The position numbers were made by a program, and so were the translations under genes. A model generated the notes under the pieces. The model had not been told where the DNA came from, did not search any database, and was given only the letters and a program-made list of their open reading frames with translations. Below are positions 3,875 through 61,000 of a stretch of 64,000 nt of DNA, piece by piece; within the stretch, counting starts at the first letter, position 1; each line of letters opens with the position of its first letter. This DNA is from an uncultured Candidatus Saccharibacteria bacterium (lineage in GTDB: Bacteria; Patescibacteriota; Minisyncoccia; Phycocordibacterales; UBA918), in the NCBI GenBank assembly GCA_964353135.1, contig CAYGTV010000001.1:18696-82695 (forward strand), given 5' to 3'.

Positions 3875-4903
3875 ATGAAACGTGTAGCAATTAATGGATT
3901 TGGAAGAATTGGACGAACGTTCCTACGTACGGCTTTTGGGCATAAGGATTTTGAAGTAGTAGCAATCAATGATCTAGGAAGTTTAGAAAATCTTGCCTAC
4001 CTACTTAAGTACGACTCTGTGTATGGACGGGCACCTTTTTCTGTCGAGGTAGTAGATGGAAAGCTAATGGTGCAGGGGAAAGAGATTGCGTTCACACAAG
4101 AGCGAGAACCAGAAAAACTTCCATGGGGTGCAATGAATGTAGATATCGTTGTTGAGTCAACTGGATTTTATACAACCTACGAGGGTTCAAAGAAGCACCT
4201 CACTGCTGGCGCAAAGCGAGTGGTTATTTCTGCACCAGCAAAAGATGATCCTGCTGCAGCCGGTGTACAAGGAGCAACCGTACTGATGGGGGTGAATGAC
4301 GACCAGCTTAAAACCTGTCAGATTTCTTCTAACGCATCATGTACTACAAATGCAACCAGTCCATTGATTGCGATCTTGAAAGAAGCAATTGGAATCGAGA
4401 AAGCAATTTTGAACACTGTTCACGCGTACACATCAACCCAATCTTTGGTTGATGGTCCAGGTAAAAAAGACATGCGTTCTGGACGAGCTGCAGCCCTCAA
4501 TATCATCCCTGCTAGTACCGGGGCGGCAATTGCTACAACCAAAGCTCACCCTGAACTAGACGGAAAGTTTGACGGTATCGCAATGCGGGTCCCAGTTCCG
4601 GTCGGTTCAATTGTAGACGTGACGTTTATCGCTAAGCGAGATACAACAGTAGAAGAAATCAATGCTGCTTTTACCAAAGCAGCTGCTGACCCACGATGGA
4701 AGAACATCTTTGCTGCTACCGACGAACCGATTGTATCTTCTGACATTATTGGATCACGAGTCGGTTCAATTGCTGACTTGTCATTCACTCGTGTGGTGGG
4801 TGGAAACTTGGTCAAGGTGCTTGGGTGGTATGACAACGAAACTAGCTACACACAAACGTTGGTAGAACATGTCGCTGCGTCTGCTCGACACATGCAATCA
4901 TAA
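3875..4903 (+). CDS. gap: glyceraldehyde-3-phosphate dehydrogenase
   Basis: N-terminus MKRVAINGFGRIGR (NAD-binding); the active-site ASCTTN motif is present; 342 aa. Confidence 0.9.
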   Translation: MKRVAINGFGRIGRTFLRTAFGHKDFEVVAINDLGSLENLAYLLKYDSVYGRAPFSVEVVDGKLMVQGKEIAFTQEREPEKLPWGAMNVDIVVESTGFYTTYEGSKKHLTAGAKRVVISAPAKDDPAAAGVQGATVLMGVNDDQLKTCQISSNASCTTNATSPLIAILKEAIGIEKAILNTVHAYTSTQSLVDGPGKKDMRSGRAAALNIIPASTGAAIATTKAHPELDGKFDGIAMRVPVPVGSIVDVTFIAKRDTTVEEINAAFTKAAADPRWKNIFAATDEPIVSSDIIGSRVGSIADLSFTRVVGGNLVKVLGWYDNETSYTQTLVEHVAASARHMQS

Positions 4904-5364
4904 TGAATATTCATCTCGCTACAGATCACGCTGGCTACACACACAAAAATGCGGTGGCTGATTGGTTACAATCAGAGGGGTATGTGGTAGTAGATCATGG
5001 TGCAGCCGTGTATGACGGAGAAGATGATTATCCCGACTTTATTGCGCGAGCCGCAATGGCTATTTCCAGAAATCCAAATGATCGGGCGATAATTTTCGGT
5101 GGTTCTGGGCAAGGAGAGGCGATGCTGGCCAATCGCTTTCCCGCTGTGCGGGCGACTGTGCTGTACAGTGATGATGCAGAAATTGTTGAACTGAGTAGGG
5201 CACATAACGATGCTAATGTGCTATCGATTGGAGCGCGGTTTCTTTCGGTTGACGCTACCAAAAAGCATATTTGGAACTGGCTGCACTCAGAGCGATCAAA
5301 CGTAGAGCGACACAATCGCCGGATAGAAAAAGTGGCAGCTATCACTAAGAACATTCACACATGA
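4903..5364 (+). CDS. rpiB: ribose-5-phosphate isomerase B (RpiB/LacAB family)
   Basis: 153 aa starting MNIHLATDHAGY, typical of RpiB. Start overlaps the gap stop. Confidence 0.8.
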   Translation: MNIHLATDHAGYTHKNAVADWLQSEGYVVVDHGAAVYDGEDDYPDFIARAAMAISRNPNDRAIIFGGSGQGEAMLANRFPAVRATVLYSDDAEIVELSRAHNDANVLSIGARFLSVDATKKHIWNWLHSERSNVERHNRRIEKVAAITKNIHT

Positions 5365-17836: not shown

Positions 17837-17871
17837 CTCGCCATTGGCTCGATTTACTATCCTCGTATCGG

Positions 17872-17944
17872 AGCCACCTGTCAGGCTCGAACTGACGACC
17901 TACGCGTTACAAATGCGTTGCTCTACCAACTGAGCTAAGGTGGC
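17872..17944 (-). tRNA. tRNA-Thr (anticodon UGU)
   Basis: The reverse complement folds as a cloverleaf: 7-bp acceptor GCCACCT/AGGTGGC, D-arm GCTC..GAGC, anticodon loop TTTGTAA, T-arm GTCAG TTCGAGC CTGAC, discriminator U; no encoded CCA. Confidence 0.8.
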
Positions 17945-22247: not shown

Positions 22248-24200
22248 ATGATCGTAAACTACAACTGGCTCAAAGAATACGTGGGAGAAAAACTTCCTGA
22301 ACCGTCAAAGGTGGAAGAGCTTTTAACTGAGCATGCGTTTGAAATCGAAGGAGTAGAAGAGGTCGCTGGTGAAACGGTAATCGATGTCGATGTGCTACCA
22401 AACCGTTCGTCTGACTGTTTGTGTCACCGGGGGATTGCTCGAGAGCTCGCTACTATCCTAGATATACAGCTTGAAAAAGATCCGTTAGCAACCGAACCGC
22501 AATTAGCAGAGACTGATAAAATCAGTGTAAACATCGCAGATACAGAAGCCTGTCCACGCTTTAGTGCTTCACTAGTTACAGGGATCAAAGTTGGTGAATC
22601 ACCAGAGTGGCTGAAAGTTCGCCTGGAATCACTTGGGCAACGCAGCATCAACAATATCGTCGATGCAACCAACTACGTCATGTATGCAGTAGGGCAGCCA
22701 TTGCATGCCTATGACGCAGACCTCTTTCCACAGGTAGACGGCACATGGCAGTTTGGTGTGCGGTATGGAAATGAAGGGGAGGTGGTAGAAATCCTTCCCG
22801 AAGGAGGAAGTATAGAACCTCGGCAGGTTATGTGTACAGGGACAGAGCTACTCATCGTTGATGAATCGAGCAACACACCAATTGGGCTCGCTGGCGTAAA
22901 GGGTGGGCAGTTTGCCGGTGTGCATGCAGGTACGACTAACATCATCATCGAAGCGGCTCACTTCCACCCAACTATCACAAGAAAAACAGCTCGCCGGCTG
23001 GGGATCGTTATCGATGCTTCTAAGCGATTTGAAAATGAATGCGCGCGGGAACTGCCACCGTACGCCCAGTTTGAAATCATCAAACTCATCAAACAAATCG
23101 CTGGTGGAGAATATCAGGGGACAATTGATGTCTATGCAGAAGAAAAAAAGAATCCTGCTGTTGACCTGAGAGTGTCAAAAACCAATGCGCTCCTTGGGCT
23201 TGAATTAACCCAAGCTCAAATTAAAGATATTATTTTGCGAACAGGCAGCACGGTAGAAGAAAAAAAACCAGGAACACTTGCATGTACTGGTCCCTGGGAA
23301 CGAACCGACCTGTTGATCGAAGAAGACTTTATTGAAGAAGTGGGTCGTCTGTATGGACTATCTAACATCATTTCGATCGTGCCTGGTACAGACACTGTGC
23401 CAGCAGTAAATCCGCGACAGCACTACTCAGAAAAGATTCGACAGACACTGCTTGGTCTAGGGTTTTCTGAAGTCATCACCTCGTCTTTTCAGAAAAAAGA
23501 TAAAATCCAACTGCGTAACGCTCTTGCTAGTGATAAGTCGTACATCCGCAGCACTCTGGCAAAAAACATGCACCAAGTCCTGGATGCAAACTTCTCACAC
23601 ACGGACCTATTAGGTATTCGTTCAGTCCAAGCATTTGAAATTGGAACTGTGTTTGAAAAGACTGAAAGTGGAGTAGGAGAACATTTGTCACTCGCGATTG
23701 GAGTACGACAAAAAGGGGGAGGCTATACTCCAAAAGACGACGCACCACTTCAGGCAGCTATAGCAGAACTGCAAGAAACACTCGGAGCAGATACTCCAGC
23801 TAACTGGAGTATCGAGAAGGGAGTAGCCGAAGTCAGCTTGTCTGAAGTAATTGATTCACTCCCAGTTCCTGAATCATATGAAGCGCAGGTAGAGCGAGTA
23901 GCTTCTACCTACAGTCCTGTCTCACCTTATCCAGCCATGGCTCGCGACATCGCACTTTGGGTTTCAAATTCTCCGGGGGAGGATTTGAAAAATGATGTGT
24001 TGCAGACTTTAGAAAGTGCTGCTGGTGACCTATGTGTCCGCATTGATCTATTTGATGAATTCACCAAAGACGGCCGAACTTCGTATGCCTTCCGACTAGT
24101 GTTCCAAGCATCTGACCGTACGTTAACTGACACCGAGGTGGGAGAAGTAATGGAAGAAATAAACAGTGTAGTGCGAGATAATAAATGGGAAGTCAGATAG
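22248..24200 (+). CDS. pheT: phenylalanyl-tRNA synthetase beta subunit (short form)
   Basis: N-terminus MIVNYNWLKEYV matches the PheT start; B3/4 and B5 regions are recognisable; 650 aa, about 150 aa shorter than typical bacterial PheT. Confidence 0.85.
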   Translation: MIVNYNWLKEYVGEKLPEPSKVEELLTEHAFEIEGVEEVAGETVIDVDVLPNRSSDCLCHRGIARELATILDIQLEKDPLATEPQLAETDKISVNIADTEACPRFSASLVTGIKVGESPEWLKVRLESLGQRSINNIVDATNYVMYAVGQPLHAYDADLFPQVDGTWQFGVRYGNEGEVVEILPEGGSIEPRQVMCTGTELLIVDESSNTPIGLAGVKGGQFAGVHAGTTNIIIEAAHFHPTITRKTARRLGIVIDASKRFENECARELPPYAQFEIIKLIKQIAGGEYQGTIDVYAEEKKNPAVDLRVSKTNALLGLELTQAQIKDIILRTGSTVEEKKPGTLACTGPWERTDLLIEEDFIEEVGRLYGLSNIISIVPGTDTVPAVNPRQHYSEKIRQTLLGLGFSEVITSSFQKKDKIQLRNALASDKSYIRSTLAKNMHQVLDANFSHTDLLGIRSVQAFEIGTVFEKTESGVGEHLSLAIGVRQKGGGYTPKDDAPLQAAIAELQETLGADTPANWSIEKGVAEVSLSEVIDSLPVPESYEAQVERVASTYSPVSPYPAMARDIALWVSNSPGEDLKNDVLQTLESAAGDLCVRIDLFDEFTKDGRTSYAFRLVFQASDRTLTDTEVGEVMEEINSVVRDNKWEVR

Positions 24201-35676: not shown

Positions 35677-37428
35677 TTATACGTTTGTCTCCTCAGTTAA
35701 TTTCATTAGGAAATCTTCGATACTCATGGCTACTGATTCACCAGTGTCACGGGACTCAACCGTAACGGTGTTGGCTTCGATGTCTTTGTCACCGATGATA
35801 ACAAAGTAGGGGAGTCGGTCCTTTTTAGCATTACGTACCTTTTTGCCCATAGAGTCATTACTAGTGTCGATCTCTGATCGGAAGCCAGCTGCCTCGAGTT
35901 TATCATGGACTCCTTGTGCATACTCGTTGTGCGCTTCAGCTACGGGGATGACCGCCACCTGTCCTGGCGAGAGCCAGAGTGGGAAGTTGCCAGCAAAGTG
36001 CTCGATCATGATGGCCATAAACCGTTCGAGTGATCCGGCAATAGCACGGTGGATCATGACAGGTGTTTGTTTGTTACCTTCGTGATCTACGTACTCGAGC
36101 CCAAATCGTCCTGGCATCACAAAATCAAGCTGCGCAGTGGCTAGTTGACGTTCCCGTCCAATGGCGTCATAGAACATGAAATCGAGCTTAGGTCCATAGA
36201 AAGCTGCTTCACCCTCAACTCGTTTGTATGGCAGTTCTAGTCGCTTGGCGACATCTTCTAGCATTGCTTCGGCTTTCTCCCAGCCTGCTCGGTCACCAAG
36301 GTAACCCTCTGGATCAGTTGGATCACTCACTGATAGTGACACCCAGAATTTACCCTCTTCGTACATACCTAGTGTTTGGTAGAACTCTTTGATCACGTTC
36401 ACGATCGCCTCGACTTCTTGGTCGATTTGGTCAAACGTGCAAAACGCATGGCCGTCGTCTTGAGTGATGCTTCGCACTCGACCAAGCCCAATCAGCTCAC
36501 CAGCCTGCTCGTCCCGGTACACCATAGTAGTTTCTGCATACCGAATTGGTAGCTCTTTGTATGAGCGAGGTCGACTGTCAAAGATCTGGGTGTGGTGCGG
36601 GCAGTTCATCGGCTTCATGACAAACTCAGCATCACTTTTGCCTTTCACCTTAAACAACTCATCGCCAAACTTTTCCCAGTGACCTGATTTTTTGTACAGG
36701 TCACTTTTTGTTATGTGTGGAATGGTCACTTTTTGATAGCCGTACTTGGCCTGGATCTGCATGATTTTATCTACGACGAGGTCGCGCATGAGGGTGCCTT
36801 TGGGGGTGAACAGGGGAAGTCCAGCGCCTACCAATTCAGAGAACGTAAACAGATCTAACTCCTTGCCAATTTTTCTATGATCACGCTCTTTGGCTTGTCG
36901 CATTTGTTCTTCGTACGCTGCCAGTTCTTCTTTGGTGTCAAACGCTAGTCCGTAGATTCGGGTGAGCATCGGGTTTTTTTCGTCACCACGCCAGTACGCA
37001 CCAGCGATCTTGTCTAGCTTAAATGCATCCATGGTGATCTCTTCTTTTGGATTTTCGACGTGTCCACCTCGGCACAGGTCGGTAAAGTCGCCGCAGGTAT
37101 ACAGCGTGATAGTTTCTCCCTTACTTTCAATTTCGTCGATTAATTCTAGTTTAAATTCATTACCAGCAAATCGTTCTCGAGCAACACTAGCTGATACTTC
37201 CTCGTGGGTAAATTCAGTCCACTTGTTGACCAGCTTCTTCATTCCTTTCTGAATGGATTTCAGGTCTTCTTCTTTTGGTGATTCTCCAGCAGAAAAATCG
37301 ATGTCGTAGTAGAAACCATTATCAATCGCTGGTCCCAGAGTTAGTTTGGCGTGCGGGTACTGCTCAACAACCGCCGCAGCGAGCAGGTGGGCTAGGGTGT
37401 GTCGTTTGTGTTCGAGGTGTTCGTTCAT
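35677..37428 (-). CDS. thrS: threonyl-tRNA synthetase (lacks N-terminal TGS domain)
   Basis: Begins at the N2 editing domain (HTLAHLLAAAV, H-x-x-x-H); class II core and C-terminal anticodon-binding domain. Start chosen at MNEHLEH (37428); the track ORF extends to 37542 without homology support. Confidence 0.9.
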   Translation of the reverse strand: MNEHLEHKRHTLAHLLAAAVVEQYPHAKLTLGPAIDNGFYYDIDFSAGESPKEEDLKSIQKGMKKLVNKWTEFTHEEVSASVARERFAGNEFKLELIDEIESKGETITLYTCGDFTDLCRGGHVENPKEEITMDAFKLDKIAGAYWRGDEKNPMLTRIYGLAFDTKEELAAYEEQMRQAKERDHRKIGKELDLFTFSELVGAGLPLFTPKGTLMRDLVVDKIMQIQAKYGYQKVTIPHITKSDLYKKSGHWEKFGDELFKVKGKSDAEFVMKPMNCPHHTQIFDSRPRSYKELPIRYAETTMVYRDEQAGELIGLGRVRSITQDDGHAFCTFDQIDQEVEAIVNVIKEFYQTLGMYEEGKFWVSLSVSDPTDPEGYLGDRAGWEKAEAMLEDVAKRLELPYKRVEGEAAFYGPKLDFMFYDAIGRERQLATAQLDFVMPGRFGLEYVDHEGNKQTPVMIHRAIAGSLERFMAIMIEHFAGNFPLWLSPGQVAVIPVAEAHNEYAQGVHDKLEAAGFRSEIDTSNDSMGKKVRNAKKDRLPYFVIIGDKDIEANTVTVESRDTGESVAMSIEDFLMKLTEETNV

Positions 37429-37870
37429 AAGTATAGTTTCTAAGGAATTTTCTGGCGAATTAAAATAGGGAAACATCTGCGCGCGACCAATTTTCAAGAA
37501 GCGAATGCGGCTATGAAAATGGAAGTACTCCTGTGGTGACAATGCTCGGAGCGAAGCCGTTGAGTCTTTTTAGTTCACCAGAAGATTACGTACGTCCTTA
37601 TGAATTACATTACTGCTCTCAGCGGCTTCGCCTACGGTAGCCGGCTGCAGATGCTTCGATCAGCAATGTAATTCAACGGACTAAATTGATAAAAGAAAAA
37701 TCGCCCAAGTGAATATACGAAAAATCGTAGACTCACTCGGACGATCAAAAAGTTCCATCGCGGTTCCACCGAGCTTCGGGCAGGTATACCTGCACCGCAC
37801 TTCATTAACAGGTTAGGGGAGTGTTCCCGCGCAGCTGATGATTGGTAGTCATCACAATCCCTGTCTAGCT

Positions 37871-37899
37871 ATCGTACAGCCGATATAGATTTTTGGCAA
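37871..37899 (-). promoter_or_regulatory. candidate sigma70 promoter for the thrS leader (TTGCCA-17-TACGAT on the minus strand)
   Basis: On the minus strand: ttgcca aaaatctatatcggctg tacgat, immediately downstream of the terminator of the preceding minus-strand gene. It implies a ~400-nt leader. Confidence 0.35.
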
Positions 37900-37902
37900 A
37901 TG

Positions 37903-37937
37903 AAAACCGCGCCGGAAACCGGCGCGGATAGCTTTTT
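37903..37937 (-). terminator. terminator of the dnaE-150aa transcription unit
   Basis: ccgcgccgg aaa ccggcgcgg stem-loop; T-rich runs on both strands (gctttttgg on plus, ttttcatttg on minus). Confidence 0.6.
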
Positions 37938-37941
37938 GGTT

Positions 37942-58067: not shown

Positions 58068-61000
58068 ATGTCTGAAGAATCAACATTCAAAAAAACTGAG
58101 TTCAAGAAGCCGCCGATGATCCCAACAAACTACACCAGTGTTGGACTAAAATTAGCTGATCCAGAGACTATCCTAGAGTGGTCATGGGGAGAAGTTACCA
58201 AACCAGAAACTATCAACTATCGAACCCAACGTCCTGAAAAGCACGGTTTGTTTGATGAACGAATTTTTGGTCCTGTAGAAGACTACGAATGTAGTTGTAA
58301 AAAGTACCGAGGAATCCGTTACAAAGGAATCATTTGTGAAAAATGTGGAGTTGAAATCACTCGAGCAATCGTACGACGTGATCGAATGGGACACATTGAT
58401 CTGTGTGTACCAGTATCACACATCTGGTTCCTGCGTGGAGTTCCTTCACGAATTGCTATGATCCTTGGGATTACTGCATCATCAGTAGAAAAGGTAATTT
58501 ATTTTGCCGGCTACATCATCACAAAAGTAAGTGAGGCTGACCGAGCGCGTATTTTATCTGAACTAGACACCGAATTTAAAACCAAGCTGAAAGCGCTACA
58601 AAACGAAGAAGCACGTGAAGCCCTCAAAGTGCGGGCAGACGAGACTGCAAAGGAGATTAAATCAATCCAGCAGGGAACTGTTTTGGATGAAGCAACATTC
58701 CATAAATTCTCAATCAAGTACTCGACTTTGTTTGAAGCACGAATTGGTGCCGAAGCAATTTACGATCTGTTTAAAGAAATCGATCTAACCGTATTGGTAC
58801 AAGAACTAGAAGAGCGATACACCAAGGCTGGAGCAATGGAACGACTAAAAATCGACAAGCGGCTAACCTTGATCCGAGGGATGCTGCACGCGGGCGTTCG
58901 ACCAGAGTGGCTGTTCCTAACCCGACTCCCGGTGGTACCACCAGCGATTCGACCGATGGTTGCACTGGAAGGTGGGCGACATGCGTCATCTGACCTCAAC
59001 GATCTCTACCGTCGAGTAATCAACCGAAACAACCGTTTGAAAAAGCTGATCGACATCATGGCACCTGACGTGATCCTACGAAACGAAAAACGAATCATGC
59101 AGGAGGCTGTCGATGCATTGATCGACAACTCTATCCGACATGGTGGCGGTGCGTACTCAGCCATGAGTCAGGCACAACGCCGACCACTCAAGTCACTATC
59201 TGACTACCTAAAAAGTAAGCAAGGATACTTCCGACAGAACCTGCTTGGAAAGCGAGTGGACTACTCTGGACGATCAGTGATTGTTATTGGTCCTGATCTA
59301 GCGCTTGACCAAGCTGGTCTACCAAAACACATGGCGCTGGAACTGTTTAGACCATTTGTGATTGCGCAACTACTGAAGCAAGAGTTGGCCTACAACATCC
59401 GTGGAGCAGGACGTCTGATCGAAGACGGAGTGCCAGAAGTGTGGGCAATCCTTGAGGACATCATCAAGCATAAATATGTGATGCTTAACCGTGCACCGAC
59501 CCTTCACCGTCAGGGTATCCAGGCGTTCCGTCCGGTTCTTATTGAAGGTAATGCGATCCAAGTTCATCCACTCGTGTGTAAGGCTTTTAACGCCGACTTC
59601 GACGGAGACCAGATGGCGGTCCACGTGCCACTGTCTGACGAGGCGCAGTTGGAGGCAAAGATGATCATCTCTGCCAACAACAACATCCTCAAGCCAGGGT
59701 CTAGTGAACCAGTTGTATCAGAAGGACTCATGGACATCGCCCTTGGAGCGTTTTGGATGACGCGAATGGTTGATGGGGCAAAGGGAGAAGGTAAAGCCTT
59801 TTCTTCACCAAACGACGCCATCAACGCGTACGACTATGACGTTATTGATCTGCGAGCCAAAGTAAAAGTGCTAGCTACCGATACACCTAAATATGCCCAG
59901 TACGAAGGAGGCATCTTTGAAACAACCGTTGGTCGGCTATTGTTCAACGCAGTACTACCAAGTGACCATGATTTTGTAAATGAACAATTAGGTCAACGTG
60001 AACTATTCCAAATCATCATTGACTTGATTGATGAACAAGGAACAGAGATCGTTCCAAAAATGGTCGACAAGATCAAAAAGAACGGGTTCAAGTTCGCTAC
60101 AAAATCAGGAACTACCTGGGGAATTGACGAGGTGGTCATCCCGGCAGAAAAAGCAGCTTTGGTAGCCGAAGGACGAGAGAAAGAGCGAGAAGTGCTCGAG
60201 CACTACAACGAAGGACTTCTTTCACGAGAAGAGCGAAAACGGCAGATTACTGCAATCTGGCATGTTACCAAAGACGCCATTGAAAAGAAGATCGAAGAGC
60301 AAATGGAAGTCGATGGTTCAGCGTACACGATGTGGAAATCAGGAGCTCGAGGATCAATCCGACAGATCTCGCAGATGACTGGTATGAAGGGTCTTATTCT
60401 AAACACTCGAGGTGAAACGATTGAAGCTCCGGTTATTTCTTCTTTCAAAGAAGGTCTTTCACCGATGGAGTACTTCAACACGACTCACGGTTCACGAAAA
60501 GGTCTTGCTGACACTGCACTCCAGACTGCAAAGGCTGGGTACCTAACCCGACGACTCTTCGTGGTAGCGCAAGATGCGATTGTGACTGAGGCTAACTGTA
60601 AAACGAAAGCGGGAACACTGATCAGTCGAATTTCAGCTTCTGGAATCGAGATTGCATTCAGTAAAGCGATCAAGGGACGAATCCTAGCAGCAGACGCAGT
60701 CGATTCAAAAGGAAATGTGATCTTTAAAAAGGGTCACCTGATGACAAGGCGGGATGCTATCGCAGTTGAAGAAACAACCTGTGAATCAGTAGAGGTGCGA
60801 TCACCAATGACCTGTGCGACACTCCGAGGAGTGTGTCAGCAGTGTTATGGAACTGACCTCACAAAGAATGAGCTGGTAGACATCGGAGAAGCCGTTGGAA
60901 CAATTGCCGCTCAAGCGATTGGTGAGCCAGGAACGCAGCTAACGATGAACACCAAGCACAAGGCTGGTACAGCAACTGCTGAAGGTGACGTAGCACAGGG

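Follow-up and report, generated by a model that had tools for sequence, protein, structure and literature searches.

A probable tRNA-Thr-sensing T-box attenuator with an ultrashort-type Stem I in the thrS leader of a Patescibacteria genome

The gene for threonyl-tRNA synthetase (ThrRS), thrS, was studied in a stretch of 64,000 nucleotides (nt) from an uncultured Candidatus Saccharibacteria bacterium (contig CAYGTV010000001.1, positions 18,696 to 82,695), hereafter the window, whose own numbering is used below. The long leader in front of this gene is very probably a tRNA-Thr-sensing T-box transcription attenuator of thrS. All T-box parts lie within 176 nt after the promoter (37866-37691, minus strand), namely a specifier hairpin, Stem III, an antiterminator and an intrinsic terminator that overlaps it; they are conserved and covary among related genomes. 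The original prediction had pointed to a T-box-like motif, but found no convincing Stem I or terminator/antiterminator pair and held that the topology did not fit a T-box; both are present and conserved. The leader is T-box-like in its discriminator half and has no canonical Stem I, and the element is filed here as a thrS T-box of Patescibacteria that terminates transcription and has an ultrashort-type Stem I. The coordinates of all features are collected in Table 1.

Table 1. Features of the thrS locus of the window and of its leader.
Feature	Position	Strand	Details
Sigma-70-type promoter of the thrS leader, TTGCCA-17-TACGAT	37871..37899	-	consensus scan
Decoding module	37808..37864	-	P0 closes a multi-helix junction holding GAUUG, Stem I, hairpin IIb and CUAA
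Stem I, 6-bp hairpin UGAUGA-CUACCAA-UCAUCA	37836..37854	-	7-nt terminal loop CUACCAA
Hairpin IIb (GGGA-ACAC-UCCC)	37817..37828	-	conserved CUAA after it, 37816-37813
Purine string AAGUG (RRRNG) and Stem III	37777..37802	-	Stem III = 37797-37777, then AA
Antiterminator GCUCGG-UGGAACC-GCGAU...AUCGU-CCGAGU	37735..37774	-	contains the 12-mer
Intrinsic terminator, 21-bp hairpin and U-run	37691..37746	-	hairpin 37746-37699; U-run UUUUUCUUUU 37700-37691
Module F	37594..37681	-	outer stem 15 bp, conserved core with tandem G.A pairs
Module R	37450..37583	+	homologous core antisense to thrS; hairpin ends 21 nt before AUG
thrS coding sequence	35677..37428	-	583 amino acids; relatives align from residue 1
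Intrinsic terminator of the upstream 150-amino-acid open reading frame	37907..37927	-	9 G-C pairs, 3-nt loop, then TTTTCATTTG
tRNA-Thr(UGU) gene	17870..17944	-	discriminator U73, CCA not encoded

Related loci were collected by a ThrRS protein scan with one genome per species, which gave 80 loci (cited below by L numbers). All of them belong to Patescibacteria, the candidate phyla radiation (CPR), mostly labelled Paceibacterota or Parcubacteria, with ThrRS identities of 59-88%, the best relative being at 88%. The exact 12-nt T-box sequence (12-mer) found in the window occurs in 31/80 loci, always with A at the variable position and on the sense strand, 68-481 nt upstream of thrS. The same leader layout is found immediately upstream of thrS in about 34 of the 80.

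In the window, the 12-mer GGTGGAACCGCG lies at 37770-37759 on the minus (thrS) strand and is the single exact match to the T-box core GGTGGNACCGCG, with 0.02 matches expected by chance, in agreement with the earlier assignment. Two other candidates, a one-mismatch motif in coding-looking sequence (175-186) and the palindromic GGTGGTACCACC at 58931, were taken as chance. The 12-mer is part of an antiterminator formed by helix A1 (37774-37769 with 37740-37735) and helix A2 (37761-37741), which are separated by the 7-nt bulge UGGAACC (37768-37762), the UGGNACC bulge that characterizes the T-box family; the Rfam T-box alignment has a posterior probability of about 1 over this region. Upstream of it, the palindrome CAGGTATACCTG, already noticed in the original prediction, is real and makes up the apex of Stem III. 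The discriminator half of T-boxes has the signature 5'-RRRNG-Stem III-AA-3' (PMC7778990), and the leader reads AAGUG-Stem III-AA, with A66, G67, G69, A91 and A92 of these flanks invariant in 24 sequences. The variable base of UGGN is A, which had been proposed to pair with the discriminator U73 of tRNA-Thr. The tRNA-Thr gene of the window does have U at this position, and this part of the proposal stands; the gene has the anticodon UGU, however, and not that of the isoacceptor reading ACC, which would be GGU.

The terminator competes directly with the antiterminator. The AUCGUCCGAGU of its 5' strand also closes the antiterminator, where it provides the 3' strands of A2 and A1, so that the two structures are mutually exclusive through a common strand, as is the case in the T-box family. 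The minimum-free-energy fold of the leader chooses the terminator, with a z-score of -4.9 relative to shuffled sequences. With the upstream helices held constant, the terminator conformer has -56.2 kcal/mol and the antiterminator conformer -42.4 kcal/mol, and the fold check for exclusive helices proposed together with the motif was thus positive. As is typical of T-boxes, the antiterminator would prevail only with the help of tRNA. A strong terminator hairpin with a U-run after it was found in each of the 27 full-length relatives, with fold energies between -25 and -41 kcal/mol and, in our own reading of the folds, some 15-30 predicted pairs. The lower stem is always the antiterminator 3' strand, while the upper stems are unrelated in sequence between genomes. 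In addition, the host uses intrinsic terminators, given that the gene upstream of the leader ends in one.

One family member has a different arrangement. L015 (2925-3005) is the sole one without terminator or U-run. Its helix GAAUGAAC/GUUCAUUC shares sequence with the 3' strand of the antiterminator and extends as far as the AUG, beside GGGAAG, and may sequester the start region. The same T-box could here act on translation, but the fold z-score is only -0.4. Divergent thrS leaders with AGUGGAACCGYC were observed in three loci labelled Moraniibacteriota, L035 (~2798), L038 (1252-1355) and L052 (2726-2844); for the latter two, folding predicts that the 3' strand of the terminator pairs back across Stem III and A1.

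The decoding half is closed by helix P0, in which ACAGG (37864-37860) pairs with CCUGU (37812-37808). P0 encloses Stem I and the IIa/IIb hairpins, which results in a three- or four-way junction. Where the window has IIb alone, two hairpins (IIa and IIb) are found in the majority of relatives, and folds of the individual sequences from Stem I to CUAA give one or two hairpins of variable sequence and length, after which comes a conserved YCCUAA. GAUUG, on the 5' side of Stem I, and YUAA, before the 3' strand of P0, show little or no variation and are kept even in the most divergent members. The specifier is ACC (37846-37844), a Thr codon, located at positions 3-5 of the Stem I loop and followed by A. 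All 28 aligned leaders have these same three bases (A21, C22 and C23) with a purine after them, and the loop follows the pattern C/U-U/C-ACC-A-A across relatives. In our own reading of the sequence, this loop appears to resemble a tRNA anticodon loop in size and flanking residues.

An alternative register of P0, AGAUU/AAUCU, was rejected because it is broken in the window and in L015, which retain CAGG/CCUG through double changes, and because the divergent members covary in the CAGG/CCUG register. The closing helix GCGGT...ACCGC of the original prediction was also discarded, as it appears only in the minimum-free-energy fold of the window, and relatives read GCUG, GCCG or GUCG there. Neither an S-turn motif nor the pairing of a IIA/B pseudoknot could be demonstrated in the leader, whose 3' flank pairs with the 5' end as P0. 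The Rfam T-box model places hairpin IIb and CCUAA on Stem IIA and the F-box CCGUUA, which is at most suggestive of homology between them.

Covariation was evaluated over five helices (P0, Stem I, Stem III, A1 and A2) with a total of 30 pairs. Alignment of 24 leaders with MAFFT gave 95.1% of cells paired and 19 of 30 pairs changing on both sides; none of 500 shuffles reached any of the measures, and pairing dropped to 32-42% when the 3' partner was slid by 1-3 columns. The comparison with upstream regions of related thrS genes, proposed as a check of the original prediction, therefore supports it in both respects, conservation of the 12-mer and covariation. A covariance model built from this alignment was searched against 599 kb (window and 80 loci) and gave 34 matches at E < 0.001, all of them directly upstream of thrS and on the sense strand, of which 10 are sequences outside the model-building set. 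In the window there is one match, of 110 bits, and the result did not change with all filters off. The model-based alignment comprises 36 sequences and has 95.9% paired cells and compensatory changes in 26/30 pairs. This includes 5/5 pairs in P0 (96% of cells paired) and 8/8 in Stem III; Stem I has compensatory changes in 6/6 pairs and A1 in 5/6, and A1 and A2 are 95-96% paired. Of the two results, that from MAFFT carries less bias, because the model-based alignment is fitted to the structure.

The promoter assigned in the original prediction as the leader start is supported by the relatives, as a TTGACA-16/17-TAnGAT promoter can be recognized in the majority of the 31 related leaders, its end lying 4-7 nt ahead of the element. 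In the window, only about 40 nt separate the terminator of the upstream gene (37927-37907) from P0. Since the promoter abuts the element and this terminator is so close, there is no room for a long Stem I.

The proposed mechanism is built by analogy with known T-boxes. Transcription would start a few bases past the -10 box TACGAT, and the first ~60 nt would fold into the junction closed by P0, with the 6-bp hairpin as its first arm displaying ACC in the anticodon-loop-like 7-nt loop. The anticodon of tRNA-Thr(GGU), which we infer to be the isoacceptor involved, would pair with ACC. If this tRNA is uncharged, its 3' end UCCA could pair with UGGA in the 7-nt bulge of the antiterminator, which would be stacked on Stem III and the flanking purines. 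Held together by the tRNA, the antiterminator would allow RNA polymerase to read through into thrS. With tRNA charged or absent, the terminator, more stable by about 14 kcal/mol, would form and transcription would stop at the U-run. Binding of uncharged tRNA-Thr to ACC and UGGA, stabilization of the antiterminator and readthrough are thus expected by this analogy, while it is more uncertain that the leader would operate co-transcriptionally without contact to the tRNA elbow.

Several results weigh against the interpretation as a tRNA-Thr-sensing T-box. The GGU isoacceptor of tRNA-Thr, needed for ACC, is absent from the window and from 60 scanned loci, and its existence and discriminator base are consequently assumed. 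Using Rfam at the gathering thresholds, only tRNAs and no T-box were obtained in the window and L001-L020 (19 carry the leader). The Rfam search recommended in the original prediction did give a match to the T-box family RF00230 in E-value mode (651 nt), at 37895-37734 with E = 0.0019, but the score of 24.7 bits is below the gathering value of 93. In this alignment, 90 Stem I model positions are deleted and the region is collapsed to 25 nt; the score is sub-threshold because the long Stem I is absent. Transcriptional T-boxes generally need a long Stem I platform that binds the tRNA elbow (PMC7583486, section 6.2), and with this platform absent, efficient co-transcriptional sensing is not assured. 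Finally, about 45 of the 80 related thrS loci have no such leader, and L004 (2821-2954) keeps P0, the Stem I hairpin with ACC, IIa/IIb and CUAA but has lost the T-box sequence and the antiterminator, and resembles a copy in decay. Some lineages can therefore do without the element.

Compared with canonical class I T-boxes, the thrS leader shares the sensing of uncharged tRNA, as predicted from its sequence, by a specifier codon together with UGGN:NCCA pairing at the 7-nt bulge of the antiterminator. It also shares Stem III with RRRNG/AA flanks, a mutually exclusive intrinsic terminator, an aminoacyl-tRNA synthetase as the regulated gene and a specifier ending in C. In contrast, it has neither K-turn, S-turned internal specifier loop, AG bulge nor distal-loop elbow platform, the specifier being in a terminal 7-nt loop. 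P0 joins the 5' end to the segment after IIb, enclosing Stem I and one or two hairpins, and the leader occurs in Patescibacteria with a score far from the RF00230 gathering value; thus, neither the score nor the long Stem I of class I is found here.

The closest known Stem I is that of the ultrashort (US) or class II T-boxes of ileS, credited to Sherwood, Grundy and Henkin 2015 as cited in bioRxiv 10.1101/2023.02.28.530422 and PMC7583486. Intermediate and ultrashort Stem I variants characterize translational T-boxes, mostly of Actinobacteria (PMC7583486), and the ultrashort class is translational, carries the specifier in the terminal loop and regulates ileS in all its members (preprint co-authored by Tina Henkin, bioRxiv 10.1101/2023.02.28.530422). 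The class II model of TBDB was searched only in Actinobacteria and in class I hits with truncated Stem I (PMC7778990). Like this class, the thrS leader has a short Stem I with the specifier in the terminal loop, no elbow platform, and extra elements between Stem I and Stem III. It differs in three of four class characters, which are the expression platform, the regulated gene and the taxon. Whereas class II has a translational Shine-Dalgarno sequestrator on ileS for tRNA-Ile in Actinobacteria, the thrS leader has an intrinsic terminator and the specifier ACC, and its hosts are Paceibacterota, Parcubacteria and other Patescibacteria, a different superphylum. The short-stem build is present here on thrS and, in L044, on an aspS-type gene. 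The glyQS leader, the minimal natural transcriptional T-box, is likewise compact and acts on transcription, but it has retained the long Stem I and lacks Stem II and IIA/B; in the thrS leader, conversely, the long Stem I is missing and extra hairpins are retained. No paper linking T-boxes to Patescibacteria, CPR or Parcubacteria was found in the full-text literature, the coverage of which is incomplete, so that a prior description is possible.

The L044 locus contains a second T-box (4848-5099), downstream of thrS and preceding a class II synthetase gene of the Asp/Asn/Lys type. Its Stem I is CCAG-CUGACA-CUGG, with GAC followed by A in the loop; the bulge is UGGC, it has its own terminator, and it scores 35.2 bits on RF00230. 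GAC is an Asp codon, and with G73 as the discriminator of tRNA-Asp, both the loop triplet and the base in the bulge would change along with the regulated gene, which gives independent support to the threonine specificity of the thrS leader. The L044 element suggests that these bacteria use the short-stem transcriptional build for more than one synthetase gene. That the leaders form a mechanistically distinct, CPR-wide T-box class, with a C-U-NNN-A-A specifier hairpin in a 5'/3'-closed junction, no elbow contact and several synthetase genes under control, is a tentative proposal that we consider somewhat more doubtful than likely.

The rest of the leader, about 260 nt, consists of two hairpin modules, F and R, which are absent from the closest relative L001. 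The original prediction had counted the ~300 nt between motif and start codon as a sign against a T-box; the distance is ~330 nt in the window, as compared with 88 nt in L001, because of the insertion of these two modules. It had also drawn attention to a near-perfect 14-bp stem with ACC in its loop. This stem is real, with 15 bp in the fold (37675-37661 / 37615-37601), but it is the outer stem of module F and not part of the tRNA sensor. Module R was matched by nhmmer on the plus strand (37466-37570, E = 7e-6). The module core contains a tandem G.A pair, an AAC/GUU helix covarying to AGC/GCU, and a GCAG...GA internal loop, with compensatory changes in 14 of 18 pairs of the consensus. The outer stems of 10-25 bp show near-perfect pairing and unrelated sequences between genomes, and the apex tolerates insertions up to ~60 nt.

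Two core variants of the module were distinguished. Two copies each are present in the window, L002, L075 and L086/L087; modules also occur in L003, L007, L010 and L043, and are absent from L001, L009, L013, L014 and L016. Copy number, order and orientation differ between genomes, with 8 modules in sense and 7 antisense relative to thrS, and all 15 fold better, by 2-18 kcal/mol, on the strand where their own core reads forward. Using a profile of the module core, nhmmer gave significant matches only in 5' untranslated regions (UTRs) of thrS within the 64-kb window and 90 loci, and no Rfam match was obtained at E <= 10 on the window leader or at E <= 5 on the L003 spacer. Nor do the modules fit any of the known classes considered, which were hammerhead, twister, pistol and hairpin ribozymes, integron attC sites, signal recognition particle RNA and the K-turn. 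A metagenome scan with a 20-mer of the module returned 10 loci, two of them in the same thrS-leader context; the others appear to be chance matches within coding-looking or unrelated sequence. In L082-L084, the 20-mer match is in the 5' end of an open reading frame, in sequence apparently unrelated to the clade. We conclude that the modules are strand-specific structured elements inserted in the 5' UTR and not part of the tRNA sensor; they may be small mobile palindromic elements, independent RNAs or stabilizing hairpins, and may represent an undescribed small mobile or structured-RNA family. A different kind of insertion was observed in L006 (~2810-2990), where the spacer between T-box terminator and thrS has a hydrophobic-looking short open reading frame (~60 amino acids by eye) and no hairpin modules.

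Other readings of the leader were weighed against this background. An ordinary canonical T-box with an overlooked long Stem I, which would make the leader a merely divergent member of RF00230, agrees with the canonical discriminator half and with a regulated gene and codon typical of T-boxes. It is nevertheless very improbable, as the promoter and the upstream terminator are too close for a Stem I of ~90 nt, 90 Stem I positions are deleted in the Rfam alignment, no K-turn, AG bulge or distal-loop motifs were found in the leader, and the hairpins that separate Stem I from CUAA are variable in both sequence and length. Even less probable is an autoregulatory operator as in E. coli thrS, where ThrRS binds leader hairpins that mimic the anticodon arm of tRNA-Thr and blocks translation. 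In both systems the same gene is regulated through a long structured leader, and the Thr anticodons CGU and UGU are contained in the module F apex, which is ...ACCGUA... in the window and ...ACUGUA... in L002. An anticodon-like loop is not conserved, however, since the apex of other copies is CCCGAAGGG, CCCAUCAGG or a 60-nt insertion, and the modules occur in either orientation and are missing from the closest relative. The E. coli operator senses the protein and has neither the T-box bulge nor the terminator, both of which are found here, where tRNA is the predicted ligand, and the T-box elements fully account for the conserved part of the leader.

In the least probable reading, the 12-mer has no function today and is either a coincidence or a decayed relic. 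The sub-threshold Rfam score and the loss of the 3' half in L004 would be consistent with it, but the number of matches expected by chance in the window is very low, the 12-mer is kept in the 31 loci mentioned above, the terminator is kept in every full-length member examined, and all five helices covary among loci that are not near-identical, as indicated by the range of ThrRS identities. Chance, a small RNA and a mimic of the ThrRS operator had all been left open in the original prediction; T-box elements and covariation were found instead. As regards the modules, it seems unlikely, though far from negligible, that both belong to thrS regulation, as a second switch, an RNase III processing or stabilizing site, or an insulator of the ribosome-binding region. 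Their restriction to thrS 5' UTRs in the data set, the covarying core helices, and the position of the AUG-nearest module, whose end lies 15-21 nt ahead of the start codon in the window and six relatives, speak for such a role. The preference of each of the 15 for its own forward strand, seven being antisense to thrS, the variable copy number, order and orientation, the five loci without modules and the lack of an Rfam family match speak against it.

The gene itself was confirmed. The leader lies in a gene-free interval that extends from the stop of a 150-amino-acid open reading frame (37942) to the thrS ATG (37428, minus strand), as originally described (~510 nt), and Pfam identified the product as ThrRS from the tRNA_SAD, class II core and HGTP anticodon-binding domains, with no TGS domain. 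The N-terminus, in the window and in relatives, starts straight away with the HxxxH region of the editing domain (MNEHLEHKRHTLAHLL), the N-terminal TGS being absent. A start at TTG 37542 was ruled out since the alignment of the relatives begins at ATG 37428, and a 57-amino-acid open reading frame within the leader (37632-37805) was rejected as a gene, with no Pfam match and overlap with the RNA structure. No Shine-Dalgarno sequence precedes the thrS AUG in the window. The tRNA-Thr(UGU) gene is the only tRNA gene of the window; its 3' end reads ...GGUGGC-U-CCG, and CCA must be added post-transcriptionally, since it is not encoded. The window also contains pheT, for the beta chain of phenylalanyl-tRNA synthetase (22248-24200, plus strand), and no T-box other than the thrS leader was detected anywhere in the 64 kb, indicating that T-box control is not general to synthetase genes here.

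If the leader is a tRNA-Thr-sensing T-box attenuator, it would be a natural counter-example to the need for a long Stem I in transcriptional T-boxes and to the confinement of ultrashort variants to ileS and Actinobacteria (PMC7583486; bioRxiv 10.1101/2023.02.28.530422), and it would offer a minimal scaffold of ~175 nt for mechanistic and engineering work. Should the proposal of a distinct class be true as well, the long Stem I platform would not be required for kinetic tRNA sensing at the level of transcription. Annotation based on Rfam misses this whole short-stem family, and the use of T-boxes in the candidate phyla radiation is probably under-counted. These reduced-genome and largely uncultivated bacteria would then regulate at least one aminoacyl-tRNA synthetase by direct feedback from tRNA charging.

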